Shown piece by piece: positions 1-64,000 of a DNA stretch of 64,000 nt. The notes below the pieces were generated by a model. That model saw only the letters and a list, made by a program, of their open reading frames with translations. It was not told the DNA's origin and made no database searches. The DNA is from Alphaproteobacteria bacterium (GTDB lineage: Bacteria > Pseudomonadota > Alphaproteobacteria > CAAHEQ01 > UBA3637), in the NCBI GenBank assembly GCA_045598925.1, contig JAZRVC010000027.1:847-64846 (forward strand). The letters are read 5' to 3'. Every line of letters begins with the position of its first letter. Position 1 is the first letter of the stretch. A program made the position numbers and the translations under genes.

Positions 1-1105
1 TACTCACCCCCGATGAAGCACTTTCATTCACAGCATAACCAAGCGCTTTTAAACCATCCGAATCCGAGGTATCCGCATCCATTTTAGACATTAATGTATG
101 ACCTTGTGCCAAACACCAGTTATGTGCACTCCACCAGTTCATCCCTTTATTAAGGTATTTTTTACCCACAAAGGCCGATGGTAAAGCGCGACCTGTTAAA
201 TCTTGAGCCGATAAAGTCTTATCCGCCTTAAACTCCCCTTCTATAATTGATTTACATTGACCTTGGGCAGGACCATATGAACACTCAAACTGATAACCAA
301 CATTAGAATATGCACTAAAATAACAAAATTCTCCGCTCTCGCATTCTGCATTCGTGGCACAACCCTTGGTACTGGCTTTAGTGGGTTCATAACATTGTCC
401 TGTGGAAAGACCATCTCCTGTACACGTAGAACCCGCAGCACAACAGACCCCTTTGCATGGGAGTTGTCCATTAGAAGAACATACATATATGCCATTGACA
501 CAAGTTGTTCCTTCGGGTTGAGTTCCCGTACAGGGTTTTCCCACAGGGCCAGGAGTCATCCCCGCCGTTAAATCTGTATTATAGGTAAAAGTGGTACATT
601 CTTCATTGATATACACATTCCCGTTGGTACTAATCGTTCCGTGAATTTGTTCGCACACATCCGAATCAATACCCGATACCGTTAAAGCAAAAGTATTGGT
701 GCCTGCCGTATAAGAAACCGTTGTATCAAAAGTTGCGCCTGCCACTTTATTACCTGTAAATTCCCCTAAATTCGGGGTGGCTTTATTGTTGCGTTGGATT
801 TGGGCCGAAACCGTCATCGCCCGCATGGATGCCCCGTTTAAAATTTCATTGGCGCGGTGTTTATTCATCGCCATTTTATAGCCCGCGATACCACCCACGG
901 ACAGCACCCCGATAATTGCCAAAACGCCCAGCATTCCAACCATAGAGCGACCCGTCTCCCCTGTCATTCTGAAGGCGTTAGCCGAAGGATCCATGGATCC
1001 TTCGCGTCCGCTCAGGATGACTGAGGGTGAGGTATGCCCGCTCAGGATGACGGGGGAAAGGTTTGATTGCCCTTGTTCTTGATTTAAATTTAATTTTTTA
1101 ATCAT
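1..1105 (-). CDS. Secreted cysteine-rich lectin-like protein with a type-IV-prepilin-like leader; the 3' end of the gene lies beyond the window edge
   Basis: I translated the minus strand by hand from the ATG at 1105..1103 (RBS GGAGA 7 nt upstream). It is open for all 368 codons to position 1. The N-terminus reads ...TGETG|RSMVGMLGVLAIIGVLSVGGIAGY, which resembles a prepilin leader plus hydrophobic helix and is very similar to the 63707 gene. This is followed by a Cys-rich region and a C-terminal ...MNWWSAHNWCLAQGHTLMS segment like the start of a C-type lectin domain. The track ORF 241..501(-) is a different frame. Confidence 0.7.
   Translation of the reverse strand, partial: MIKKLNLNQEQGQSNLSPVILSGHTSPSVILSGREGSMDPSANAFRMTGETGRSMVGMLGVLAIIGVLSVGGIAGYKMAMNKHRANEILNGASMRAMTVSAQIQRNNKATPNLGEFTGNKVAGATFDTTVSYTAGTNTFALTVSGIDSDVCEQIHGTISTNGNVYINEECTTFTYNTDLTAGMTPGPVGKPCTGTQPEGTTCVNGIYVCSSNGQLPCKGVCCAAGSTCTGDGLSTGQCYEPTKASTKGCATNAECESGEFCYFSAYSNVGYQFECSYGPAQGQCKSIIEGEFKADKTLSAQDLTGRALPSAFVGKKYLNKGMNWWSAHNWCLAQGHTLMSKMDADTSDSDGLKALGYAVNESASSGVS
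961..1056. mobile_element. RPE-like palindromic element (about 96 bp) inserted in frame in the leader of the 1..1105 gene
   Basis: There is a perfect 22-bp palindrome cgaaggatccatggatccttcg (983..1004). It is flanked by imperfect inverted arms (gtcattctgaaggcgttagccgaagg / ccttcgcgtccgctcaggatgac) and a direct repeat of cgctcaggatgac (1009..1021 and 1040..1052). The element encodes ...PVILSGHTSPSVILSGREGSMDPSANAFRM... without breaking the reading frame. Confidence 0.5.
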
Positions 1106-4073: not shown

Positions 4074-5831
4074 TTATTTGCGACCGAAAAGTTTTTCTAT
4101 ATCGTCTAGTTTTAAAGTAATATAAGTCGGGCGACCATGAATACATTGACCCGAGGTACCACATTCTTCCATCTGACGCAACAGGGCATTCATTTCATCA
4201 ACCGATAACTCTCGCCCTGCCCTGACCGAACCATGACACGCCATACGGGCACAGATATCTTTCATTTTATCCTTTAACAAAACGGTGTCGTCAAATTCTT
4301 TTAAAGTATCCACCAAATCATGAATAATTTTGGTTAAATCGGTTTTATCCAGCACGGCGGGGATTTCCCGAACCGCAACCGAATCCGTTCCAAAAGGGTC
4401 TATCTGCCACCCCATTTGTTTTAATTCTTCCGCTTTAGAGGTCAATAAAAACACTTCATCCGATTTTAAATCCACAATTTCAGGCACCAGCAACAATTGA
4501 GTTTGTGGATGCTCCCCAAAATTCTTCATCATTTTTTCATAGGTCAAACGTTCATGGGCCGCGTGCTGATCCACAATTAAAACAGCATCCTTGGTTTGGC
4601 TGATAATATAGGTTTTATATAGTTGTGCTTTGGCCAATCCCATCGGGGGAAAATCGGCGGGTTGGACAGGAACGGTTTTCTGTGCAACAGGGGTTGTTTT
4701 TACACTATAACTATCGGACAATTGAAAAGATCTTTGTTCTTGGATAGGTGTATAAGACGGACGAGAAAAATGGGGTGTTTTTTCACTCAAGGAGACAGGG
4801 GTACTCTCTAAAGCACCGATTTTAATCGTGGTGGCTGTTTGATGACCGTGTTCGGCCAACACAGACCGAATCGCCGATACCATTATACCACGAATCCGCC
4901 CAGAATCTGCAAAACGCACTTCTGTTTTCGCGGGCGACACATTCACATCCACTTGATGATTCGGCACACTTAAAAACAATGCCAAGACGGGATAGCCATC
5001 ACTGCCGTGTCCCATCAGACCTTGATAAGCCCCACGAATAGCCCCCAATAAGACCTTATCTTTCACACTGCGCCCGTTCACAAACAGGTATTGATCGGTG
5101 GATGTCGCCCGTGTATAAGTGGGCAAACCCACAAACCCCGATAATTTTATCCCTTCATATTGCGTTTGAATGGGCTAAGCGTTTTCCTGAAATTGATGAC
5201 CGATTACCATAGAAACCCTGTCTATCAAACGATTCGTTATAGGATAGGATAAAAGTTTTTTATGCTCATTTGAAAGCGAAAAGGAAATATCGGGATGACT
5301 CATCGCCAATTTATCCACAATTTCCCTGAGGGCCATTTGCTCACTTTGATCAGATTTTAAAAACTTTAAACGCGCAGGGGTGTTATAAAATAACTCTTTG
5401 ACTTCTACGGTCGTTCCGAAAGGTGCGGAAGCGGGCTGAACGGGACGTTTTTGACCTCCGTCCACACAAATACACCAACCTGAATCTGAATCCTTTTGAC
5501 GTGTGGTAATCGTCATTTTTGAAACAGATGCAATAGACGGCAAGGCTTCCCCGCGAAAACCCAAAAAATTGATATCCAATAAATCATCAGAAGGCAACTT
5601 ACTGGTCGCATGACGTTCCACCGCCAAATTGAGTTCTTCAGGATTCATCCCTTTGCCATTATCCGAAACAGAAAAATAGGCTTTACCGCCTTGTTCCACT
5701 TTAATATCAATACGGGTAGCGCCCGCATCAATGGCGTTTTCAATCAATTCTTTGATGGCACTGGCGGGTCTTTCAACAACCTCGCCCGCCGCAATCTGAT
5801 CAATTAAAATTTGGGGTAAAACACGCAACAT
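4074..5831 (-). pseudogene. mutL: DNA mismatch repair protein MutL interrupted by an in-frame TAG stop
   Basis: The N-terminal ATPase ORF (5175..5831; ...ELIENAIDAGAT...) and the C-terminal ORF (4074..5132) are in the same reading frame. Reading through the TAG at 5175..5177 gives ...VIGHQFQENA*PIQTQYEGIKLSGFVGLPTYTRATSTDQYLFVNGRSV..., which aligns colinearly with the MutL transducer region. Confidence 0.75.
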
Positions 5832-23815: not shown

Positions 23816-26038
23816 CTACTCCCTACACACAGCATGGCCATTATAGTTGTTGCGACCTGCGTTACCCTCATAACCATCGTAGGCCACAAGGCGCGCGTAG
23901 CAGGAAGTATCTCTAAGCGGTGTACTCGTCCAAATATAGTTAGCAACTGCTGCACCAAACATTTTTCGTAAAGTGTTGGCCCGCGTTTTATCTGTGGGAA
24001 TTACACCTGTATATGTTTGAACCGCACTATTTACTTCATCCAATGTAACAAGAGATAAATTCTGAGCTTGACACCAATTATTGGCACTATACCAACTCAT
24101 CATTGTGTTACTATAGGTCCAACCCGTAAATGCAGTGGGATTCTCTTCAACTGTAGAAACAACTCCCCCCATATAATCTGATACTTGCTTACATGTCCCT
24201 ATCGTAGAAACATCACAACCATTAATAACAAGGCGTACACCCGTTGTTAGAAGACAGAACTCTCCCGGATTCGGACAATCCACATTTGTGGCACAACCTT
24301 CTGGTTTATAACATTCCCCCAATGTAGTGCCATCTGCAGAACAAGTATATCCTTTGGCACAACAAACCGCCGTATCACCAATACCACATTTTACCTGACC
24401 ATTAGCACATTCACTGCACTTATAATAAGTTGTCGTGGGTGTCGTACAGGTTGTTTCTTTTCCTTCTGCACATTCTGGTATTGATTCAGTTATTGTCCAA
24501 CTATCATCACAGGTATTAGCAACACATTCGTCCCCTTCTAAATGATACCCTGTATTACATTCACTGCACTTATAATAAGTTGTCGTGGGTGTCGTACAGG
24601 TTGTTTCTTTTCCTTCTGCACATTCTGGTATTGATTCAGTTATTGTCCAACTATCATCACAGGTATTAGCGATACATTTTCCCTCATCATTTTCATAATA
24701 TCCAGAGACACAGTCCCCACACTTTTGAGATATAGAAGGTTTTTGTTTTGGTACCCTATGCGCTTCTTCACAAGAATTAAAACATACACGACTATATTTC
24801 GTATTTGTCGTAGTATCACAATAGGCTTTTTCTTTTTCTGTATATGTACAGGCCGGAACCGGCATAGATGGGAAAACAGCACAAATCCCATCTGCACAAA
24901 TCTTTTGACAATCGTTACCACAATCTGAATTTTTTTCACAAGGAACGACACAATCTTGTATTGATTCATCATAATTTTCTATAGCCTGATTACAGAAGCA
25001 AGAAACCTCTCCTTCTTCTGTCATCATCGTTTTAATAAATCCACCTTTTCCAACAGGAGAACCAAGTGCACACATATTAGAAATACATTTACCTTTATCA
25101 TTTTCATAATATCCAGAGAGACAATCCCCACATTTAGAGGATATATGTGCATCTTTTTCCCGATGCAGTGCGTTACAAGAAGTACAAGCATAATTGTGAT
25201 ACTCATTTAACTCTGTATCACAGTAGGCATTTACACGAATAGTATAATCAGATCCCCCCATACCATTACAAGATGGAATGAGACCAAAATTACGTCGTTC
25301 TTCACAAATTCCCTCACTACACTCTTCTTCGCAATCTGGTTTACAATGAAGATTAGTCATACATTGAACACACTGACTTCCATTCCAATAAGGGGTATCA
25401 CCTGAACACAGGATACAACGTCCCTCTATATCATGATATTCTCCCACACAATCTCCGCATTCGCCATTCGTTCCGTCTTGACGATTTAAAGAGGCGCAAC
25501 TGACACAGCCAGTTTGGGTGTCGTTTAAGGCGGTACCGTCTTCACAAACACAACTTAAATTTTCCCAAGTACTGCCGATATTTTTAAAGCCTTCCTGACA
25601 AGCAAAACTTTCATTAGAGCAATCCGCATGATTTGGACACGCATAGCATTTATCTGTGCCACCAGGGGCAAAAGTACCTTCATCACACGCCACACATTCG
25701 GCCTTGCCCGCCACAGAGTGTGTTCCGGGGCCACACAAGGTACATTCATTTTGGCCATCGCTATAATAGCCCGTGGGACAAGGCTCACAGTTGCCGTCTT
25801 TGGCCACATATCCCAAATCACACAAGCACACACCGAACTCTTTATAGACGTTATCGCCCACGCAGGCACCCTCTTTTAATCTTAACTTCGGGCAATTCCC
25901 AACCCCGCATAATTCCACCGCAATAGACTTCACCCCATTGGGATTTGTGGCTTTTGTTTTACCGCCAAAAAGACCACCGCCCGCCAACACAACCGTGGAT
26001 ACCAAAACCGTACTAAACAATAAAACAACATTTTTCAT
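23816..26038 (-). CDS. Large secreted cysteine-rich protein (GCC2/GCC3- and EGF-like repeats) with a C-type-lectin-like C-terminal domain
   Basis: 740 aa. A Sec signal peptide is followed by CxxCPxGxY...CxxC repeats along most of the length. The C-terminus ...MMSWYSANNWCQAQNLSLVTLDEVN...SCYARLVAYDG...GHAVCRE fits a C-type lectin domain (CTLD). There is an RBS (GAGGAT). It is a paralogue of 32933..34387 and of the partial gene at 1..1105. Confidence 0.7.
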   Translation of the reverse strand: MKNVVLLFSTVLVSTVVLAGGGLFGGKTKATNPNGVKSIAVELCGVGNCPKLRLKEGACVGDNVYKEFGVCLCDLGYVAKDGNCEPCPTGYYSDGQNECTLCGPGTHSVAGKAECVACDEGTFAPGGTDKCYACPNHADCSNESFACQEGFKNIGSTWENLSCVCEDGTALNDTQTGCVSCASLNRQDGTNGECGDCVGEYHDIEGRCILCSGDTPYWNGSQCVQCMTNLHCKPDCEEECSEGICEERRNFGLIPSCNGMGGSDYTIRVNAYCDTELNEYHNYACTSCNALHREKDAHISSKCGDCLSGYYENDKGKCISNMCALGSPVGKGGFIKTMMTEEGEVSCFCNQAIENYDESIQDCVVPCEKNSDCGNDCQKICADGICAVFPSMPVPACTYTEKEKAYCDTTTNTKYSRVCFNSCEEAHRVPKQKPSISQKCGDCVSGYYENDEGKCIANTCDDSWTITESIPECAEGKETTCTTPTTTYYKCSECNTGYHLEGDECVANTCDDSWTITESIPECAEGKETTCTTPTTTYYKCSECANGQVKCGIGDTAVCCAKGYTCSADGTTLGECYKPEGCATNVDCPNPGEFCLLTTGVRLVINGCDVSTIGTCKQVSDYMGGVVSTVEENPTAFTGWTYSNTMMSWYSANNWCQAQNLSLVTLDEVNSAVQTYTGVIPTDKTRANTLRKMFGAAVANYIWTSTPLRDTSCYARLVAYDGYEGNAGRNNYNGHAVCRE
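24407..24670. repeat. Near-perfect intragenic tandem duplication (150-bp period, about 1.75 copies)
   Basis: About 110 nt at 24411..24520 recur at 24561..24670. The duplication encodes two copies of CANTCDDSWTITESIPECAEGKETTCTTPTTTYYKCSEC in the 23816..26038 protein. Confidence 0.8.
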
Positions 26039-39807: not shown

Positions 39808-39845
39808 AAAAAAATCTCCCCGTTTTAAGGGGAGATTTATATTGA
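39808..39845. terminator. Bidirectional rho-independent terminator
   Basis: Hairpin atctcccc-gtttta-aggggagat (39814..39837) flanked by A/T runs. It lies between mutY(+) and the 39846(-) gene. Confidence 0.6.
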
Positions 39846-41603
39846 TTATGAAATTGTACAAGCATGTGTTGTAGAATCCCAATTTTTGCCACCCAACTTT
39901 TTACATTCTTCCGACGAATTTGTCGTTGGGAATTCAGTTCTGGTTGCGGTTGAAGGCAGGAACAAAGTATTTCCTGAATCATCTTTAAAGTTATCTTTAT
40001 CAAACACACAGTAGGTTTGAACGACCGCTTTTGCCGAAGAATCAGGAGTACATGATCCACCGTTATTCTTACCCAAAGTGACAGACCATAAACCAGTGCT
40101 ATTATGTGCGACGGTATCCATTGAGTGAGCCGAACCTGCAATCTGCACACAAAGTCCCGTATCATTTTTAACGGAAACATTTGGATATGAGAAAGTTGTT
40201 CCTGAAACTTTTAATTGAGGAATCGTTATCTCATTATTAGTGTTAGCATCATCTAGATCAATCTCTTTTGACTCTGTTTTTACTCGATCATCTGATAAAT
40301 CATTATCATTTAATGTCAAAGCAGGAATATCAACAGTTAATTCTCGTTTATCCCAAGTGGTTGGTAAAACCACCAAGGCTTTTTTATAACCTGTCGGGCA
40401 ATCTGGTTTTTCAACCGCCCCCCCCCCTGATGCAATTTCCTTCTGCGTTTTTAAAATATAGTTCGGTAAAATTTCAGACAGGCTGGCCCCACCCCGAGAT
40501 GTCAATTTAACATCATTCAGAATTGAGGTATAGGCCGGATCCAAAAGATAACGTCTTTCTTGACCATTATCTTGAGCATCTGGACCGCTGTCTGCAAAGA
40601 AAATAGCCCCTTCTTTAGTTAAACGAATAGCGGCAGGTGAATTGGCCGGGTCATCTTGATCATAGCCCACATTCAAATCATTGCGCGTATAAACCGAACC
40701 ATTTTCATCGGCTTCCACCCAGAAAGTCGGCAAACAAGTGGGAGGCACATGCACCTCATCAGGATTCACAATAGAAACACCATTTGAATCAACCTCTGCG
40801 GTATTGTGATTAATGTATGACTCAGAATAACATCCCGTGGCATTCCCCACAGAAAAGTGGCCATAAGCATTTAATTTACGAACCTGTAAATCCAAATCTT
40901 TCGACAATGTCACTTTGGCTTGTTGTTTTTCATATTCGGGGGTAAAGACATCAAATCCCGTTGTGGCCGCATAAACCGCCCCGTGATAGTCGGCATCTTC
41001 CATACCGTCTATTTTATCCAAATGCCATGTTCCCAAAGAACCCGCTATTTCATCGTTGGTCGGTTCCCCATAAACGCCACCGTCTGCCCCAATCAATAGG
41101 GCAACGCGTGCCGCCCGCTTAAAGTTCCAACCTGTGGCGGGAATAGTTGCTGTTGTCGGGAAAACGACTCCGTAAATTTTAACCGCGGCCGTATCGTCAT
41201 TTTGACGATAAATCCATAAAGAAGGATTGTAATATTCGCCCAATCCCCCATCTGAAAACCACCCGTCCGGTAAATATTCGGAAATATTATCAGATAAACC
41301 ACCGATAGCACATTGATTCACATTATTGCAAGGATCACTTGGCGTACCAGTAGAACAAACAGGGGGAATTTGCTCCGCACACGTTGTTTGAATTTCGGCA
41401 GAATGGGCCTGAATATAGGCCGCGAAAGCCTCCTTAACTGTCCGAATTTCTGATGCCATTTGAATATTGTGTAATTCTTGGTTTCTTTGATAGATTTGAC
41501 GAAACAGCATTGCCCCCATCACGCCCATCAATGCCAACACAGCAATGACTTCCAACATAATAGAACCTTGTTGTGTCTTTCTTTTTTCAACTGTTAAAAC
41601 CAT
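39846..41603 (-). CDS. Very large type-IV-prepilin-like (pseudopilin-like) protein
   Basis: 585 aa. The N-terminus MVLTVEKRKTQQG|SIMLEVIAVLALMGVMGAM has a basic N-region, Gly at -1, Glu at +5 and a hydrophobic helix, i.e. a class III signal. The large C-terminal domain contains paired Cys and has no assigned family. Confidence 0.6.
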   Translation of the reverse strand: MVLTVEKRKTQQGSIMLEVIAVLALMGVMGAMLFRQIYQRNQELHNIQMASEIRTVKEAFAAYIQAHSAEIQTTCAEQIPPVCSTGTPSDPCNNVNQCAIGGLSDNISEYLPDGWFSDGGLGEYYNPSLWIYRQNDDTAAVKIYGVVFPTTATIPATGWNFKRAARVALLIGADGGVYGEPTNDEIAGSLGTWHLDKIDGMEDADYHGAVYAATTGFDVFTPEYEKQQAKVTLSKDLDLQVRKLNAYGHFSVGNATGCYSESYINHNTAEVDSNGVSIVNPDEVHVPPTCLPTFWVEADENGSVYTRNDLNVGYDQDDPANSPAAIRLTKEGAIFFADSGPDAQDNGQERRYLLDPAYTSILNDVKLTSRGGASLSEILPNYILKTQKEIASGGGAVEKPDCPTGYKKALVVLPTTWDKRELTVDIPALTLNDNDLSDDRVKTESKEIDLDDANTNNEITIPQLKVSGTTFSYPNVSVKNDTGLCVQIAGSAHSMDTVAHNSTGLWSVTLGKNNGGSCTPDSSAKAVVQTYCVFDKDNFKDDSGNTLFLPSTATRTEFPTTNSSEECKKLGGKNWDSTTHACTIS

Positions 41604-41627
41604 CTGTCTGCTTCCTTTCTTTATTTT

Positions 41628-43205
41628 TTAAGATACATCTTCAGAATTTACCCCTTTATAGTATATGGGAAAACGCCCTCTATCTTCTTTATACATATCG
41701 TGAATTTCATCCTGTGTCAAGGCTCGGTCAAAAAAGCGCACACCATAGATCTGAGTGCGTTGTTCTGGCGTCGCGGTTCCCAAGTGTTTTATTTCCATTT
41801 TATTTGTCCCCAAAGTAAATGAATTAAGATTAGCCAGTTCATCAGGATATTCGTTCAAATCTATACTCATTTCAGGTTCTTTTAAATCATCCGTAAAAAG
41901 ATAGATGTGATTGCCTTGACGTTGCAAAGTCAGTGAATGGATTAAACGTCTTTTGATATCAAAATCCAAAACAGGAATTTTCCCCGAAGCCCCATTACCC
42001 AATACATTTAATTCCAATACGGTAGGCTTGGTCAAATCGGCCTCATCTGCATTGGATGTATCTATGGGACGCGCTGTCAAGGTTAAAAACCCGCCTGTTC
42101 CACTTTCAAAACGGATTAAATCCACAGCAGGATTTATATCATGAACAGCACCGACACTGGAAGCCGTTTGCGGGTCAAATCCCACCAATAAGGTCAAGGT
42201 AAAATCATGGGTTAAAACACCCGAATTGATATCAAAATCGACGGCTGTATTTGGTCCTTCTAATGTAATGGCGGGACGTTTAACACTATCCGGTCCAAAA
42301 TAGGCCCCATTTAAATCACTAAAGACTTTGGTAGATGTATCATACTTCCCCGCTACAGTCGTGGAGACCAAATCCAACCACTTACCGGTTGTACCTTCTA
42401 AACGGGATTTAGACGAACTATTCGGGGCGTGTTTGGCTTGGTTATCCAAGCCATCCCAAAAATGCACCAAATTGGCAGGATAATAGGCAAAGGGGCCTTG
42501 TTTAACCTTGGACATACAAAGAAACATATCTGATGTCGGTCCCGAAGGAAACAACACTGCAACCAACCCCGCGGGAATCGGCTTAGCACAGACACCATTT
42601 TTAATGGCCCTGACACCATTATCTAAACAAAAGTTCCCCGTGCTGGTCGGGTCATCAAAAATTGTTCCACAGGTTTGAGAACCTGATGTGCGGGTAGCAA
42701 AGGAACGGCGCCAACGTTCATTACGACGGGCGCGAGAAGTACTTTCTTGTGGCCACCAAGCGGGACGTTCATATTCGTTTTTTGCCGCATCATAATACAG
42801 CCCACCATAGGTCACCACATAGATATTGTCCGAATCTTTACAGGCCTGAGCGGCTGTACCGGCCGTATTTAAACAAGCGATACGCGACACAAAGCAAGGG
42901 GCATCATCTGCCGCCAAAGGATCCAAAGCAGCATTATTATAACACATTTCCGAACCCAAATGGATATCCATATATTCCAAAAATTCGGGTTGAAGATTAA
43001 AAACAGTCCTGTCATCTGCGGGGTCGGGTTTTTGTATCCCGTACCAACGACGCAAATAATCTTTTGCGGCTTGATGTTGGCTTAAAAAAGATTGGATAAA
43101 GGGTTCACCCTGAAAGACCTCTATATTCAAGCGGTCTTCACGTGGGGAAAGCGTGTAAAACAAAATCCCCGCCAAGAATGTCAAAACAGCCATTAAATAG
43201 AGCAT
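41628..43205 (-). CDS. Membrane-anchored protein with a C-terminal LamG/concanavalin-A-like lectin-fold domain
   Basis: 525 aa. A single N-terminal TM (MLYLMAVLTFLAGILFYTL) is present, with a strong RBS (AGGGGGA) and an in-frame TAA immediately upstream. The C-terminus ...HIYLFTDD...SFTLGT...YGVRFFDRALTQDEIHDMY matches the Laminin_G_3 pattern. It sits directly upstream of the prepilin-like gene. Confidence 0.55.
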   Translation of the reverse strand: MLYLMAVLTFLAGILFYTLSPREDRLNIEVFQGEPFIQSFLSQHQAAKDYLRRWYGIQKPDPADDRTVFNLQPEFLEYMDIHLGSEMCYNNAALDPLAADDAPCFVSRIACLNTAGTAAQACKDSDNIYVVTYGGLYYDAAKNEYERPAWWPQESTSRARRNERWRRSFATRTSGSQTCGTIFDDPTSTGNFCLDNGVRAIKNGVCAKPIPAGLVAVLFPSGPTSDMFLCMSKVKQGPFAYYPANLVHFWDGLDNQAKHAPNSSSKSRLEGTTGKWLDLVSTTVAGKYDTSTKVFSDLNGAYFGPDSVKRPAITLEGPNTAVDFDINSGVLTHDFTLTLLVGFDPQTASSVGAVHDINPAVDLIRFESGTGGFLTLTARPIDTSNADEADLTKPTVLELNVLGNGASGKIPVLDFDIKRRLIHSLTLQRQGNHIYLFTDDLKEPEMSIDLNEYPDELANLNSFTLGTNKMEIKHLGTATPEQRTQIYGVRFFDRALTQDEIHDMYKEDRGRFPIYYKGVNSEDVS

Positions 43206-43263
43206 TTAATCCCCCTTTAAACTCACTTTAATCTCTTTTTTTTAAAATGGCAAGACTTTTTTA

Positions 43264-54134: not shown

Positions 54135-55199
54135 TTATGCTCCTTTAAAAGGGAAAATAACTTGTTCCACAATGTTTCCGTTACGTTTGTGATAAATCAC
54201 ATCACCTTTATGTACGACAGCGTGAACGGAATCTTGTCCACCCAAACTGGTGTCGTTTCTGAAAGAATCAATCCAATGTCCTGTGGCTGAACCTTTTCTT
54301 AAATAACACCAACTGTTATTCGCGCTAAAAGTAATCGTCATAATGCCATCATATTGAACGGTATAAAGTTGTTCACTGGCAGGCAAAGTAATGGATATCG
54401 GATTGTCATAATCCGGTGAAACAACGGAAATAATTTTCTTTTTTCCGTCAGCAGTTAAATTATTCAAACTGGTATTTGCTTTTGTGGAAAGCGCCGAAGC
54501 AACTTCTTGCGCTTTTTGGGTCGCGATACCGGCTTGAGTCGTGGCAACGCCCGCTTGAGTTGTAGAAATACCGGCTTGAGTCGTTGCATTTTGCGCTTGG
54601 GTTGCCGCGGCCTGAACCTGTGCGGCGGCTTCACCGGCTTGGATTGTGGCGGTTGTCGCCGCAGCCTCCGCCGATTCCTTATAGCCCCTAATCGTGCTTT
54701 CCAAAGCATTGACTTCTACAGTGGAATTTTCCAAGTTCGTCCCTTGGGCGTTCCAGACAATCGCTTTGCCCGCACTGGGCATCGGTAAAGTCAGTTTGAT
54801 ATCACTATCCACGGCATAAGGGGGCAACACCATAGACCGATTCAAGTTGTCCGCAATTTGTTGTTGACAGGCAATTTGATAATCCAATTCGTTGTTTAAA
54901 GTATTCGCCCGCAAAACACCCCCTTCTTGAAAGTCAGATGTTCTTTCAACAGGCAGGTCGCGCATTAAAGTAATAATCACACCACTTTCGGGAACGTTGG
55001 AAAGCGTAATACTCCCGCCTTCGCTGGCCCCCGCACCAGACACGGTATAAGTGGTAGCGTCTTGTAATTCAGACCCAAAATAAACTTTTAAATCCGAATT
55101 TTTAAAAATCGCAAATGGAAAACTGTAAGTGGCCAGCACTCCATTGGATACATACCTGATTCTGGGAACGGTACTGGTAATAATAATATGATTTGTCAA
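54135..55199 (-). CDS. Phage T7-type tail-fibre-like protein
   Basis: The N-terminus ...IRYVSNGVLATYSFPFAIFKNSDLKVYF...VIITLMRDLPVERTSDFQEGGVLRANTLNNELDYQIACQQQ... fits the T7 tail-fibre N-terminal domain pattern. The central shaft has heptad repeats TTQAG(I/V)(A/S) encoded by nucleotide tandem repeats at about 54520..54600. Confidence 0.6.
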   Translation of the reverse strand: MTNHIIITSTVPRIRYVSNGVLATYSFPFAIFKNSDLKVYFGSELQDATTYTVSGAGASEGGSITLSNVPESGVIITLMRDLPVERTSDFQEGGVLRANTLNNELDYQIACQQQIADNLNRSMVLPPYAVDSDIKLTLPMPSAGKAIVWNAQGTNLENSTVEVNALESTIRGYKESAEAAATTATIQAGEAAAQVQAAATQAQNATTQAGISTTQAGVATTQAGIATQKAQEVASALSTKANTSLNNLTADGKKKIISVVSPDYDNPISITLPASEQLYTVQYDGIMTITFSANNSWCYLRKGSATGHWIDSFRNDTSLGGQDSVHAVVHKGDVIYHKRNGNIVEQVIFPFKGA

Positions 55200-59980: not shown

Positions 59981-61447
59981 ATGATTGCGTTTTTTAATAA
60001 GTTAGGGAATAGCTGGGTAGCAAAAATTATCTGTGCCGCTTTGGGTATCAGTATGCTCGCCTTTTGGGGATTGGGGGGTATTTCCCTGTCCGCCGGATCA
60101 GATAACACCGCCATTCGTGTCGGGGCCCAAAAAATGTCCATTCAACAACTCAATCAAGCCTTTGAAGTCAAAAAGAATCAACTGTCGCAACTGACAGGGA
60201 CTTATATTTCCCCCAAACAAGCCATTGATAACGGTCTGTTGGATCAAGTGATTCAAGAACAAACAAGTGCAATGATTCAATCTCAATTACAGGAAAAAAT
60301 CGGTTTAACAGCCTCAGATGAAGCCGTTCGTAAATATGTGGAAAACAATCCTGTTTTCAAAGATAACTTGGGTCATTTTGATGCCAACCTGTTCTATGCC
60401 TATTTGGGACAAATGAAAATGAATCAAGAACAATTGGCGGATAAGTTAAAAGATGAGTTGGCTCTACAACATTTAACCAACGCTTTAATGAAATCAGCCC
60501 CGCGGGAAAAGCGTTTGATGACGGCCGCGGCGCAAGCGCAAAAAGAAAAAAGACAAGTGTCTTATTATTTCTTAAAGCAAACAGAAATTCCTGTGGCCAG
60601 CCCCAGCGAAACAGACCTGAAAGACTACTATGAAGCCTATCAGGAACAATTTACTTCCCCTGAATACAGAAAGATTCATTTAGTATTTATCAAACCCGAA
60701 AATTTCCAGGGCGACTATGATAAAATGTATCAAGCCGTCCGTGATTTGGAAGATTTATTAGGGGGCGGTGTTGCGCTGGTTGACGCCAGTAAAAAATTGG
60801 CTTTATCTTACCCAACTGAATTGGTGGTGGATTTTAACGGTAATAACAAGCAAGGTGTCTTGGCCGATAAGCGTTTAAAGGAAAATACCCTGTTGCAGGA
60901 AGTCTTTGTTTTAGATGAAAATGAAGCAACCTCAATCATTGAATATGCCAACGGATTTTTGGTGGCGGAAGTCAAAGAAATTATCCCCAGCACTTATATT
61001 CCTTTCAATCAAGTCAAGGATAAGGTTGTGGCTTTATATAAACAAGAACAACAAAAAGAAAAATTACCCGCCCTTCAACAAGAAATAACGGATAATTTGG
61101 TTCAAAAAAAGACTTGGGGAAAACATACACCTAAAACAGAAGTTGTGTCCAGAACGCAAGCCTCTAACAACATCAAAAAATATCTGCCCGACATTTTTGC
61201 CCAAAAAACGGGTTTTGCCTCTGCAACAGCCTTACCCACACCCAACGGGTATTTCATCTTTGTGGTCAATCAAGTGATTGCGGACAAACAAGTACCGTCT
61301 AAAGCAGAACAAGAAGCGGCTATTCACGTTTGGGCGCAAGACCTGATTCAAGCAGTGCAACAAAACTATACAAAAGATTTGAAAGTCAATGTCCATCAGG
61401 ATACTATTAAAAAAGCATTTGCCACTTATCTAAAAGAAGAAGAATAA
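59981..61447 (+). CDS. Membrane-anchored periplasmic chaperone/peptidyl-prolyl isomerase (PpiD/SurA-N family)
   Basis: An N-terminal TM is followed by a SurA_N-like region and a parvulin-like segment. A candidate promoter is TTGCTT-17-TAGACT at about 59926..59954. Confidence 0.7.
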   Translation: MIAFFNKLGNSWVAKIICAALGISMLAFWGLGGISLSAGSDNTAIRVGAQKMSIQQLNQAFEVKKNQLSQLTGTYISPKQAIDNGLLDQVIQEQTSAMIQSQLQEKIGLTASDEAVRKYVENNPVFKDNLGHFDANLFYAYLGQMKMNQEQLADKLKDELALQHLTNALMKSAPREKRLMTAAAQAQKEKRQVSYYFLKQTEIPVASPSETDLKDYYEAYQEQFTSPEYRKIHLVFIKPENFQGDYDKMYQAVRDLEDLLGGGVALVDASKKLALSYPTELVVDFNGNNKQGVLADKRLKENTLLQEVFVLDENEATSIIEYANGFLVAEVKEIIPSTYIPFNQVKDKVVALYKQEQQKEKLPALQQEITDNLVQKKTWGKHTPKTEVVSRTQASNNIKKYLPDIFAQKTGFASATALPTPNGYFIFVVNQVIADKQVPSKAEQEAAIHVWAQDLIQAVQQNYTKDLKVNVHQDTIKKAFATYLKEEE

Positions 61448-61466
61448 AAACAAAAGAGGGGGAAAT

Positions 61467-62516
61467 ATGACAGAAGAAAAAAAAGGATTTTCGGTTTTTA
61501 AGTTATTGGTCATTTTGTGTATCTTGGCGGGCATTGGGGGAACGATTCTTTTATGCATCCAAAAAGACAGCAAAACAGATTGGCTGACCTATTTAAAAAA
61601 TTCAACCTATCCTGTTATTCAAAAAATCACAGGAACTGTGCATCAGAAAAAACATCTGACACCGGCCCAAGAAAGACGCGTAATTGTTTCGGATGCCGCG
61701 GGAGAACAACAAAAAATAGAGATATCTGAAAAACTTTTTGACGCAACAGAAGCGGTTGCGGAAACACAGGAACTTCCCGCCGTCATTATCAATGAAACAG
61801 AAGAAGTCCCCACAACTGAAATGGATGCGACACCTGACACGGCCCCGCAAGACACCGAGGAAGCGTTAGATTCCATTGTACAAATCATAGAGGCCGAACC
61901 TGTGGAAGAAATAGAATCTGTTCCTGAAGAAGTTCAACCAATGATAGAAGAAGGAACAGACCCTGTTATCAATTTAACAGACGCCCCACCCCCAGAAATA
62001 AGAAAACAGGTTCAGTTAAAATCTGAACCCCATCAAAAAGTTGCGACCTCATACACATGGAAAGATTTTCAAGCAGGTCTTCCCTGTCAGGCTTCGGACA
62101 TTTTAGATGAAAATAATAAGGAAATCAGCAACCTGATTTATTCTTATTGTAAGTTGCCGGAAATGGATGCTTGGCAAAAATGGCAAGACTCTTTCCGTGA
62201 AGGAAAACGCACTTATTTAATCCAACAAAGATTAAAAGAAAAAACAAAGTATATCAAGTATTTAAAAGTATTACCTCATCTTTTATTTGATGTCTATAAA
62301 ACAAACGCAACGGGCAGTTCTTTGGCCGAACAATTAGACCAAATTGAAACTTTAATTGCCAAACGTCAAACACATAAAGCGGTGGAAATGTTGAAAAATA
62401 TCACAGATGATCAGGCGCGGTTGGCTTTGAATCCGGCGCTGACCGAAGGAACTCATCTGATTGAGATTCAAAACTTTTTAAATGCTCGTGCATCTGAAGG
62501 AGGAGAAAATGATTAA
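61467..62516 (+). CDS. Hypothetical membrane protein with an acidic region (HemX-like position upstream of the hemY-like gene)
   Basis: 349 aa. It has an N-terminal TM (VFKLLVILCILAGIGGTILLCI) and a central Glu-rich stretch. Confidence 0.45.
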   Translation: MTEEKKGFSVFKLLVILCILAGIGGTILLCIQKDSKTDWLTYLKNSTYPVIQKITGTVHQKKHLTPAQERRVIVSDAAGEQQKIEISEKLFDATEAVAETQELPAVIINETEEVPTTEMDATPDTAPQDTEEALDSIVQIIEAEPVEEIESVPEEVQPMIEEGTDPVINLTDAPPPEIRKQVQLKSEPHQKVATSYTWKDFQAGLPCQASDILDENNKEISNLIYSYCKLPEMDAWQKWQDSFREGKRTYLIQQRLKEKTKYIKYLKVLPHLLFDVYKTNATGSSLAEQLDQIETLIAKRQTHKAVEMLKNITDDQARLALNPALTEGTHLIEIQNFLNARASEGGEND

Positions 62517-63681
62517 ACTCATCTTGGGGATTTTAATTTTTGCAATAGCGGGTCTGACCATCCAACAATCAGATACCTTTATGAGTATAGATTTTGCGGG
62601 CTATCATATCTACGCGTCTGTTTTCACATGGATTGCGACTTTGCTGGCCTTATTTTTGTGTATCAGGATTATCCTGTTGCCGTTTCGCTGTTTTTCCTTT
62701 TTTGCAAAAAAGTATCAACAACATCAAGAAATCAAGCGCCGCAGTTTTATTGAAATCGTTTTACAGGCCCTTATCAACCAAAATATAGAAAACTTTGAAC
62801 GCTTATCTAAAGAGACCAAAAAGTTTTTTACACCAGAAGAGCCGATTTATTGGGAAATTCAAACCCTGTTATTCCCCACCAAAGAAAATTATCAAAACTT
62901 GACCCGTTTTCCGCAAACAGTGATGGGGGGAATCCGTGGGTTGTTCAGATATGCTGATTCCGATGGCGATTATGAAAAAATGCATCAATTGATAGACAGC
63001 CTGCCCCAAAAGCAGTTATCAACGCCTTGGGCTTTACAGGCTCTATTCCAAATGTCAGCACAGGAAAGCGATTGGGAAAAGGCAATGGAGAATTTGAAAA
63101 AACTAAAATCCCTCTTACCCAAAGCGGAATATAAAGCCAGACGCGCCTGTCTGCTTCTTTTAACGGGAAAAGTCAAAGAAGCCTACAGTTTAGACGCGAC
63201 TCAGCCCGCGATTGCAATTGCTTGGGCGAAACTCAATCCTAAAAAGGCTGTGAAAATTTTACGACCTGTATGGAATGATTTTCAAAACTGGGAAATTTAT
63301 TTGACCTTAAAGCAAATCTGCGCCTCTTTGCCCGCCAAACAACAATGTAAGCAAGTCAAAGAGTTGGTCAAAGACACAAAGCATCAACCATTGGCTTTAT
63401 TGGCGATGGCGGATATTTACCTGACAATTCAAGAACCCGTCAAAGCCAAAGGCGAACTGGACGAGTATTTAAAAGCGCATACCCTCACCCATCAAGTGGC
63501 GCACATGATGGCGCAAGTAGAACGCGATGCTTGGCACCACGAAGATCAGGCTAAGGAATGGGAAGAAAAAGGTAATAAAATTCAAGCTGAAAATGTGTGG
63601 ACTTGCACCAGTTGCGGGTATAAGTCGGCCACATGGCAAGGCTGTTGCCCCACCTGTCATACATTTAACAGTTTAAGATAA
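62509..63681 (+). CDS. HemY-like TPR membrane protein with a C-terminal Cys4 zinc-ribbon
   Basis: MIKLILGILIFAIAGL... (HemY_N-like with 2 TM segments), TPR-like helices and a C-terminal CTSCGYKSATWQGCCPTCH. Start chosen at MIK (62509) rather than the track start 62482. Confidence 0.7.
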   Translation: MIKLILGILIFAIAGLTIQQSDTFMSIDFAGYHIYASVFTWIATLLALFLCIRIILLPFRCFSFFAKKYQQHQEIKRRSFIEIVLQALINQNIENFERLSKETKKFFTPEEPIYWEIQTLLFPTKENYQNLTRFPQTVMGGIRGLFRYADSDGDYEKMHQLIDSLPQKQLSTPWALQALFQMSAQESDWEKAMENLKKLKSLLPKAEYKARRACLLLLTGKVKEAYSLDATQPAIAIAWAKLNPKKAVKILRPVWNDFQNWEIYLTLKQICASLPAKQQCKQVKELVKDTKHQPLALLAMADIYLTIQEPVKAKGELDEYLKAHTLTHQVAHMMAQVERDAWHHEDQAKEWEEKGNKIQAENVWTCTSCGYKSATWQGCCPTCHTFNSLR

Positions 63682-63706: not shown

Positions 63707-64000
63707 ATGAAACAAAAAAAACGTGAATCCGGCCGCAGTTTATTGGAAATGTTGGCTGTTATTGCTTTAATTGGCATCCTGACAATCGGGGGAATTAAAG
63801 GGTATAGAGCGTTAGCAACACGTTTTGAAGTTCGGGCGGTTGCCGAAGCAATGACACGTTATGTGGTCAAACGTCGGCATGAAGCCATGACCAAAAAAGG
63901 CCGAGAAGAACATGAGCAAACGGTGACAAGCCCAGAAATTCCCCATGGCGTTTCCTTTAAAATTTCAAACGATGTGGTTAATCATTTAATTGTGATTAAA
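63707..64000 (+). CDS. Type-IV-prepilin-like (pseudopilin-like) protein, 5' portion (runs off the window edge)
   Basis: MKQKKRESG|RSLLEMLAVIALIGILTIGGIKGY... is a class III leader with Gly at -1 and Glu at +5. RBS AAGGAGA. It is very similar to the N-terminus of the 1..1105 gene. Confidence 0.65.
   Translation, partial: MKQKKRESGRSLLEMLAVIALIGILTIGGIKGYRALATRFEVRAVAEAMTRYVVKRRHEAMTKKGREEHEQTVTSPEIPHGVSFKISNDVVNHLIVIK

Follow-up and report, generated by a model that had tools for sequence, protein, structure and literature searches.

The window analyzed here is a stretch of 64,000 nucleotides from an Alphaproteobacteria contig (GenBank JAZRVC010000027.1). Its minus strand carries a two-gene unit coding for a 525-residue protein with a predicted lectin fold, hereafter called the partner, and for a 585-residue protein with the N-terminus of a type IV pilin. 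The two open reading frames (ORFs), at 41628-43205 and 39846-41603 respectively, lie where the original prediction had placed them. The same applies to two further ORFs with pilin-type N-termini that are cut by the window ends (1-1105 on the minus strand and 63707-64000 on the plus strand), and the N-termini quoted for the four were recovered as well. Within the unit, 24 nucleotides separate the end of the partner gene from the start of the downstream gene, and each gene is preceded by a ribosome-binding site, which is GGGGG for the partner. A promoter-like site is present upstream; sites of this kind are no commoner in the sequence than in shuffled versions of it, so that this one is weak evidence. 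The unit is self-contained and ends at a terminator common to the gene of the 585-residue protein and to the convergent mutY. Its features are the following:

39812-43253, minus strand: the two-gene unit, including the promoter-like site and the terminator
43225-43253, minus strand: promoter-like site, TTGCCA-17-TAAAGT, 9 of 12 matches, in the 58-nucleotide gap between nusB and the partner gene
41628-43205, minus strand: the 525-residue partner, with a leaderless N-terminal helix, a Cys-rich alpha/beta region and a predicted concanavalin A (ConA)-like lectin module
43047-43205, minus strand: residues 1-53 of the partner, MLYLMAVLTFLAGILFYTLSP..., with a helix (2-19), a break at Pro21 and a second helix (23-53); no Gly-1 and no Glu5
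41673-42338, minus strand: residues ~290-511 of the partner, a predicted ConA/LamG-like beta-sandwich (lectin fold)
39846-41603, minus strand: the 585-residue modular type IV pilin-like protein (TcpB/CofB-like)
41502-41603, minus strand: class III-type signal, with Gly13 as the last residue of the leader (1-13), then SIMLE (Glu18 being position +5) and a hydrophobic tract of 21 residues
40959-41564, minus strand: pilin-like module, residues 14-215, with a helix to residue 66 and an alpha/beta head; predicted local distance difference test score (pLDDT) 84-96 over residues 21-200
40449-40550, minus strand: conserved central motif, residues 352-385 (YLLDPAYTSILNDVKLTSRGGASLSEILPNYILK), with S360, D364, G371, G372, S376 and P380 invariant
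39849-40343, minus strand: hypervariable C-terminal beta-rich region, residues 421-585
39812-39838, no strand assigned: strong bidirectional intrinsic terminator, a 10-bp stem of which five pairs are GC, with TTTTTATTT after it on the minus strand

The 585-residue protein starts with MVLTVEKRKTQQG/SIMLEVIAVLALMGVMGAMLF, where the slash marks the end of the leader. Gly is found at position -1 and Glu at +5, this Glu being the sole charge of SIMLEVIAVLALMGVMGAMLF, and 21 residues are uncharged. When the window was scanned in six frames for Gly-x4-Glu combined with an uncharged tract, two cases only were obtained, both with Glu at +5 (the 585-residue protein and the ORF at the window end), for an expected count of 0.14 in residue shuffles. 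Conservation is a stronger argument against chance than these statistics. Gly13 and Glu18 never vary in an alignment of 46 members of the family, and the family as a whole keeps the hydrophobic tract, behind basic leaders of variable length (8-90 residues). The ~45 residues that come next (VIAVLALMGVMGAMLFRQIYQRNQELHNIQMASEIRTVKEAF) are nearly invariant. In eight loci, 46 to 48 of the 48 residues counted from Gly13 are identical to those of the window protein through 16-28 synonymous codon changes, the identity over the whole protein being 42-51% for these relatives (e.g. L003-L007). Since the amino acids are kept through so many synonymous changes, this first helix (alpha-1) is under strong purifying selection, which is what would be expected if it packs in the core of a filament and is docked to an assembly machine. 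The type IV pilin-type N-termini proposed for this protein and for the two edge proteins are therefore upheld by family-wide Gly-1 and Glu+5 and by the conserved alpha-1, even if the window-start copy itself has Gly at +5. Column conservation in the family is 0.82-0.86 over residues 21-60, 0.77 over 161-180 and 0.80 over 361-380, and falls to 0.10-0.30 over residues 421-585.

An AlphaFold model of the 585-residue protein, computed from the 46-sequence alignment (mean pLDDT 72), is confident for residues 1-215, which form a long helix (4-66) and an alpha/beta head with a beta-sheet. Residues 215-380 are poorly modeled and beta-rich segments come after them. When this model was compared with 350,542 chains using Foldseek, TcpB (E 1.3e-4) and CofB (E 5.1e-4) came first. 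Although these scores are weak, it is notable that the same two proteins are the best structural matches in two programs. A search of PDB sequences with the family profile returned nothing meaningful. Four parts can be distinguished in the protein: the class III signal, the pilin module (about 14-215), the conserved middle and the hypervariable beta-rich C-terminus. According to the model, it would be a modular pilin, in which further modules are grafted onto a pilin module, and not a bare leader on a foreign domain; its predicted architecture resembles that of the single large type IVb minor pilins TcpB and CofB. In the original prediction, the leaders were followed by hundreds of residues of non-pilin sequence. 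This description does not fit the whole of the 585-residue protein, residues ~14-215 being modeled as pilin-like, and it reaches beyond the 98 residues available for the window-end gene. The central motif, LDPAYTS..ND..L.SRGGA.LSEILPNYILK, equals alpha-1 in conservation yet has a pLDDT below 50 in the AlphaFold model; it may be an interaction segment, perhaps one that binds the partner.

A database search retrieved 139 homologues of the 585-residue protein, none with a Pfam domain, and the few that bear a name are 'hypothetical protein' entries of Alphaproteobacteria metagenome-assembled genomes (MAGs). For the window proteins themselves, an exact look-up returned neither names nor accessions. 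In a scan of species-representative genomes, the family was found at 33 loci, all in MAGs of uncultured Alphaproteobacteria from gut, faeces or rumen. One odd record among these loci, L018 (CAYPVK010000006.1), is labeled 'uncultured Lactobacillales bacterium'; this label is probably wrong, because the locus has the same partner-pilin pair and the same neighbors as the Alphaproteobacteria MAGs.

The partner gene has a TAA stop codon immediately 5' of its ATG, and the protein is therefore devoid of a class III leader. It starts with MLYLMAVL, with Met and not Glu at position 5. The 15 homologues found in the database are located on the same contigs as the pilin-like homologues. In 15 partner sequences, M1, L2, Y3, L4, L8, T9, F10, L11, F16, Y17, P21 and QHQAAKDY (43-50) are invariant, the N-terminus of the family following the pattern MLYLMxVLTFLAGILFYxLSP, then QHQAAKDY, and six cysteines are invariant as well. 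The presence of invariant cysteines in both this family and that of the 585-residue protein suggests an extracytoplasmic location for both proteins. In the AlphaFold model of the partner (pLDDT 73.6, predicted template modeling score 0.75), two N-terminal helices and an alpha/beta region precede a beta-sandwich (~290 to 500), which has the two-sheet jelly-roll arrangement of the ConA-like superfamily. The LamG/ConA-like character claimed for the partner is thus retained at the level of the predicted fold and finds no support in profiles, no LamG or lectin family of Pfam or NCBIfam matching at E<=1. It also follows that the announced fusion of a prepilin leader to a lectin domain has to be abandoned, the lectin fold being in the leaderless, Glu5-less protein of the pair.

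The lectin module of the partner is most similar to that of the Streptococcus sanguinis minor pilin PilC, at 11% identity. The structure concerned, 7oa7, is a pilin-less construct of PilC (PMC9934059), and since the match is carried by the lectin module, it is no proof of a pilin module in the partner. What is pilin-like in this protein is a kinked N-terminal helix of ~52 residues followed by beta-strands, whose modeled length and proline kink may be likened to those of a pilin alpha-1. When compared using hhalign, the partner resembled neither of the pilin families, that of the 585-residue protein and the GRSMVEML family described below. In view of this lack of profile similarity, the partner is not called a pilin here. 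As modeled, it would be a bitopic protein with an unprocessed N-terminal helix, a disulfide-rich domain and a ConA-like lectin module, and the fold of residues ~290-511 suggests that they may bind carbohydrate.

In 31 of 36 loci, the gene immediately upstream of the pilin-like one codes for the partner; there is one copy of the pilin-like gene per locus, and the flanks of the pair display at least six different housekeeping arrangements. Because the order of partner and pilin is kept across such varied flanks, the pair and not the neighborhood is the conserved unit. Judging by their N-terminal sequences and not by profiles, the recurrent neighbors (clusters c8, c9, c10 and others) resemble housekeeping proteins such as RecJ and GlgA.

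The ORFs at the two edges of the window give access to further proteins with the same type of N-terminus:

1-1105, minus strand: P0136, the window-start member of the GRSMVEML family, 406 residues at full length, with Cys-rich modules and Glu5 changed to Gly
63707-64000, plus strand: the window-end member of the superfamily, MKQKKRESG/RSLLEMLAVIALIGIL, with Glu at +5, cut at 98 residues

The window-start protein reads ...MTGETG/RSMVGMLGVLAIIGVL, that is G/RSMVGMLGVL, with Gly (GGA, 938-940) at +5, and its close relatives read GRSMVEML, with Glu at +5. Its similarity to relatives ends after residue 340, residues 341-406 being unlike theirs, and P0136 may be a decaying or non-assembling paralogue. 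Pfam and NCBIfam gave no match for this protein. Its annotated 52-residue leader (878-1105, minus strand) contains a duplicated GTCATCCTGAGCGG and an imperfect inverted repeat of ~30 nucleotides around GAAGGATCCATGGATCCTTC. The translated string 'SPSVILSGREGSMD...FRMT' is also present in the leaders of P0137 and P0138, and similar strings occur in P0025-P0027 of the 585-residue family. This repeat is probably an untranslated palindromic element, the true start of the window-start protein being Met47 (MTGETG/RS...). For the window-end fragment, whose nearest cluster representatives have 386-535 residues, N_methyl reaches E 1e-3 (19.0 bits for a cut-off of 21.2) and the NCBIfam model PRK10506 E 3e-6. 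GspH/XpsH and PRK10506 are weak matches, the pseudopilin profiles scoring 12-27 bits for cut-offs of 80-160.

A search with P0136 produced 4088 matches, a few of which carry the source names 'type II secretion system protein', FimT/FimU or PulG. The N-terminus of the GRSMVEML family is invariant (GRSMVEMLGVLAI-G-L--GG---Y) and its +1 residue is Arg, which to our knowledge is unusual for prepilins. A metagenome scan for this family yielded 115 class III-like ORFs in 78 loci, with mature lengths of ~110 to 580 residues. In L065 (63-2325), L077 (80-1862) and L089 (3-1424), three to five pilin-sized genes (115-150 residues; 115-146 in the mature form) follow one another in tandem; in the first two, the N-termini are identical and the remainder is 19-40% identical. 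These small tandem pilins are candidates for shaft pilins or for a variation repertoire. Paralogues of the family have the same N-terminal amino acids encoded by DNA that is 73-90% identical, which rules out gene conversion or shared cassettes and leaves selection as the reason for the identity. Of 40 sampled members, 12 match N_methyl (best E 3e-4), one Bundlin (E 8.8e-6) and one PilS, and other members match PilS and TcpA weakly; Bundlin, PilS and TcpA are type IVb pilins. The 585-residue and GRSMVEML families have only the leader end and alpha-1 in common (hhalign 86%, E 5e-6, 56 columns), so that the three leader-bearing genes do not form the single family initially proposed. By analogy with TcpB and TcpA (PMC5207764), a minor pilin would be expected to share its alpha-1 with the candidate pilins of the shaft.

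On these grounds, we lean towards the view that the 585-residue protein is a modular minor pilin of the TcpB/CofB kind, and that together with its lectin-fold partner it would form the complex that initiates a type IV filament or occupies its tip. Both proteins would sit in the inner membrane, their large domains facing the periplasm, and a prepilin peptidase whose gene lies elsewhere in the genome would cut the 585-residue protein after Gly13. Both would then nucleate a type IV filament and finish at its tip, the shaft being built from the small (115-150 residues) GRSMVEML pilins, which are numerous in these genomes. The lectin module and the variable C-terminus could finally bind gut glycans or other ligands. 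Without Glu5, the partner fits the first or capping position, by the logic proposed for GspK, S. sanguinis PilA and TcpB-E5V (PMC9934059, PMC5207764).

TcpB and CofB combine a pilin domain with beta-domains, have an alpha-1N like that of the major pilin and are proposed tip initiators (PMC5207764, PMC8179133). With these proteins and LngB, which belong to the TCP of Vibrio cholerae and to the CFA/III and Longus pili of enterotoxigenic Escherichia coli (ETEC), the 585-residue protein shares the class III signal, Glu5, an N-terminal module, modeled here as pilin-like, followed by beta-rich domains (mature TcpB has 423 residues), an alpha-1 related to that of small pilins (candidate shaft pilins here, the major pilin for TcpB, PMC5207764) and a single copy per locus. 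It differs from them in being larger, without detectable sequence similarity or a pilus operon, in following the gene of a leaderless lectin-fold partner (in 31 of the 36 loci) and in belonging to uncultured gut Alphaproteobacteria. Modular pilins with lectin modules have already been published (PMC8179133, PMC9934059), as have tip complexes of modular minor pilins that include lectin modules and a Glu5-less capping subunit (PMC9934059, PMC8179133). S. sanguinis PilC, encoded with PilA and PilB, is comparable to the partner in sharing an operon with another large modular minor pilin, and its set also has one Glu5-less subunit (PMC9934059); PilC, however, has a canonical class III signal and Glu5, both lacking in the partner, and the host here is a diderm. 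The 'K' subunit GspK/PilX of the HIJK set is bulky, Glu5-less and thought to cap and initiate the filament (PMC9934059), a role that the partner would play in our model. K subunits nevertheless have a cleavable leader and an alpha-domain inserted in the pilin fold, and no H, I or J genes stand beside the pair.

The catalogue of Raynaud et al. (2021) contains over 1,200 proteins in which IPR012902 is combined with an additional domain, in 264 architectures, and the authors predicted that many more modular pilins are hidden (PMC8179133). The present proteins follow the same principle of a pilin module as carrier of grafted adhesive modules, which are lectin-like, Cys-rich or HINT in the relatives of the edge proteins. 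Unlike the catalogued cases, the 585-residue and GRSMVEML families are invisible, as both IPR012902-type and domain profiles remain below threshold. In the PilV shufflon of the R64 thin pilus, which is of type IVb, a constant pilin N-terminus is associated with alternative C-terminal adhesin segments. A constant N-terminus is also observed here, and a few GRSMVEML members weakly match PilS, the R64-type major pilin, but variation involves separate paralogous genes and not DNA inversion, the 5' synonymous differences implying that no cassettes are shared. The design is thus not new, modular pilins and large type IVb minor pilins having been described for cholera, ETEC and streptococcal pili, and the locus is one of the hidden cases that were predicted with the catalogue. 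What is new is the existence of two unannotated lineage-specific families, the paired leaderless lectin partner, Arg at +1 and the dispersal of the genes away from machinery.

Several results weigh against a tip complex. N_methyl (PF07963) scores 12 bits on the 585-residue protein, below its cut-off of 21.2 (E 0.16), and matches eight of the 46 family members at E<=1 (best E 0.1); TIGR02532 of NCBIfam has no match in the protein. Five of the 36 loci have no upstream partner, and the pair lies outside any pilus operon, with housekeeping genes on its flanks. In addition, searches of the window and of 121 related loci, 1.26 Mb in total, brought up neither a prepilin peptidase nor a T2SSE-type pilus ATPase, and no platform protein or secretin either. 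Regarding the profiles, the remaining evidence shows that those of Pfam and NCBIfam are blind to the families concerned. The outcome of the Pfam and NCBIfam searches, with no Laminin_G, Lectin_C or above-threshold N_methyl match, is nevertheless one that the original prediction had itself named as counting against it. The five loci without an upstream partner (L028, L030, L031, L032 and L034) are distant ones with longer pilin-like ORFs (683-762 residues). The genes in the partner's place read as ParC-, Mfd- and EF-P-like, and the partner may be elsewhere, lost or replaced.

As for the machinery, Pfam recognized in ~40 ORFs of the window Sua5, MutL, glycosyltransferases, signal peptidase I, RNase III, Era, RecO and PolA, together with MlaA/C, SurA-like, LapB, GlgB/X and outer membrane protein (OMP) genes; the host is a diderm by its MlaA/C, SurA, LapB and OMP genes. 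The window ORFs without Pfam matches are unlike a prepilin peptidase, ATPase or secretin. The absence of pilus or type II secretion system (T2SS) machinery from the window, reported at the outset, is confirmed by Pfam for ~40 ORFs and by motif and phmmer scans for the rest. Walker A and A24 motif scans over the 1.26 Mb detected no PilB/GspE-type ATPase and no A24 motif. The sole T2SSE-family gene in this set is the VirB11 gene of a type IV secretion system (T4SS), beside VirB10- and VirB9-like genes, and a phmmer search with its product against all ORFs returned only the protein itself. Three genes of 488, 349 and 399 residues upstream of the window-end pilin (59981-63681) were considered as GspE/PilT/GspF and rejected; Pfam identifies the 488-residue product as a SurA-like chaperone and the 399-residue one as a LapB zinc ribbon, and gives no match for the 349-residue one. 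The contexts of four GRSMVEML members contain only housekeeping, prophage or T4SS genes, and nothing about pili was found in the literature on RF32/CAG-239, the order to which these MAGs might belong. T4SS genes occur amid housekeeping genes and near GRSMVEML genes in L116 (12250-21044), L117 (10775-13390) and L121 (6936-9377). In L116 and L117, they code for a VirB11-like ATPase with a degenerate Walker A motif (SGATATGKTT), a 2147-residue TrbI/VirB10-like giant and CagX/VirB9, and in L121 for VirB4. Judging by these genes, the lineage has a scattered T4SS.

The same proteins could instead belong to a T2SS-like pseudopilus, in which the 585-residue protein and its partner would be large tip subunits in the periplasm or at the secretin and the lectin would recognize a glycosylated exoprotein or an envelope glycan rather than a host surface. 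The names 'type II secretion system protein' and PulG given by sources to some GRSMVEML relatives are in line with this possibility, as are the weak GspH/XpsH and PRK10506 matches of the window-end fragment, the diderm host and the presence of the bulky, Glu5-less GspK in T2SS tip complexes (PMC8179133, PMC9934059). It is nonetheless unlikely: the 1.26 Mb contain no gspD/E/F or other T2SS gene, the pseudopilin profiles remain far below threshold (12-27 bits against 80-160), the structural and profile affinities are with type IVb pilins (TcpB, CofB, Bundlin, PilS), and tandem arrays and dozens of variable paralogues bearing adhesin-like modules are atypical of T2SS pseudopilins. Plain membrane-anchored periplasmic proteins, with a convergent or vestigial resemblance to pilins and no filament, would agree with the missing machinery, the failure of the curated class III profiles on the 585-residue family, the leaderless partner and the dispersal among housekeeping genes. 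Such proteins, however, would leave unexplained the invariant Gly-1 with a membrane-embedded Glu+5, the 48-residue stretch kept through 16-28 synonymous changes and the rank of TcpB and CofB as top structural matches in two programs. The same alpha-1 moreover recurs in thousands of paralogues, including tandem pilin-sized ones, and this explanation appears quite unlikely.

The handling of the class III-signal proteins by another machine, such as the scattered VirB-type T4SS, or by an undescribed route is very unlikely. T4SS genes do represent the only envelope-spanning machinery observed near GRSMVEML genes (L116/L117 and L121), and Arg at +1 characterizes the large GRSMVEML family. This proximity is possibly coincidental, however, the T4SS genes being themselves scattered among housekeeping genes; the loci searched represent a limited and biased sample of any one genome, the sequence and fold signals all match type IV pilins, and no T4SS is known to us that employs class III signals.

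Type IV filaments rank among the main colonization factors, and the way in which they acquire binding specificity is understood for only a few cultured pathogens. The present locus points to a lineage of uncultured gut and rumen Alphaproteobacteria rich in modular pilins that domain databases do not see. In this lineage, the conserved pair of minor pilin and lectin-fold protein is an obvious experimental handle, and profile models for both families would put an end to 'hypothetical protein' annotations. The tip-complex view can be extended in a way that is conceivable, if on balance doubtful. The partner would represent a hitherto undescribed type of filament subunit: a pilin-like lectin protein without leader or Glu5 and independent of a prepilin peptidase, it would cap a type IVb-like filament nucleated jointly with the 585-residue minor pilin. 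The pair would then be the core of a combinatorial display system, with dozens of dispersed GRSMVEML pilins presenting interchangeable Cys-rich, lectin-like or HINT modules that are also used on Sec-exported proteins. Were the partner such a cap, the rule of a Glu5-free first subunit would extend to a subunit that needs no processing. On a bolder reading, the lineage may do without canonical type IV pilus or T2SS machinery and handle class III-signal proteins by another route.

The modules carried by the pilin-like proteins are shared with two paralogues of the window that possess a Sec signal and whose first ~190 residues are nearly identical:

23816-26038, minus strand: Sec-signal protein of 740 residues
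32933-34387, minus strand: Sec-signal protein of 484 residues

Both are rich in Cys repeats of the EGF/TNFR/ephrin-receptor type (TNFR_ELAPOR1_6th, E 1e-7 and 4e-8, around threshold) and end in a lectin-like module, 'MMSWYSANNWCQAQ...AVCRE', as in the pilin-like P0136/P0137 family. Residues 207-340 of P0136 are 36% identical to the 23816-26038 protein (E 4e-17). The occurrence of the same Cys-rich/lectin-like module behind Sec and class III N-termini implies that modules move between export routes. No Pfam family, including Lectin_C, Lcl_C and EGF, matches P0136 at E<=0.1. The C-type-lectin and EGF modules attributed to this window-start copy correspond to sub-threshold matches in its relatives only: Lcl_C (E 0.011-0.016) and FGE-sulfatase (E 0.038) in P0137, P0138 and P0153, and EB around its threshold (24.0 and 26.2 bits for 24.3) in their Cys-rich EB/EGF-like stretches. 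Lcl_C (DUF1566) and FGE-sulfatase are C-type-lectin-like folds. Two other relatives of P0136, P0218 and P0248, associate a pilin-type N-terminus with a pretoxin HINT domain (PF07591, E 1.9e-6, above threshold). Carried by a pilin, such a domain might serve for self-cleavage or for the delivery of a toxin, which makes it a candidate for separate attention.

Elsewhere in the window, mutL is split in two ORFs, 4074-5132 and 5175-5831, both on the minus strand, the HATPase N-terminal part being separated from DNA_mis_repair and MutL_C; this could be due to a frameshift, a pseudogene or an assembly error. A 354-residue ORF without a Pfam match (54135-55199, minus strand) contains Ala/Thr/Gln repeats and is phage-tail-fibre-like. 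Among the related loci, a podovirus-like prophage with head-tail connector, capsid and nozzle genes (L118, 4267-11277) adjoins the pilin-like P0217.

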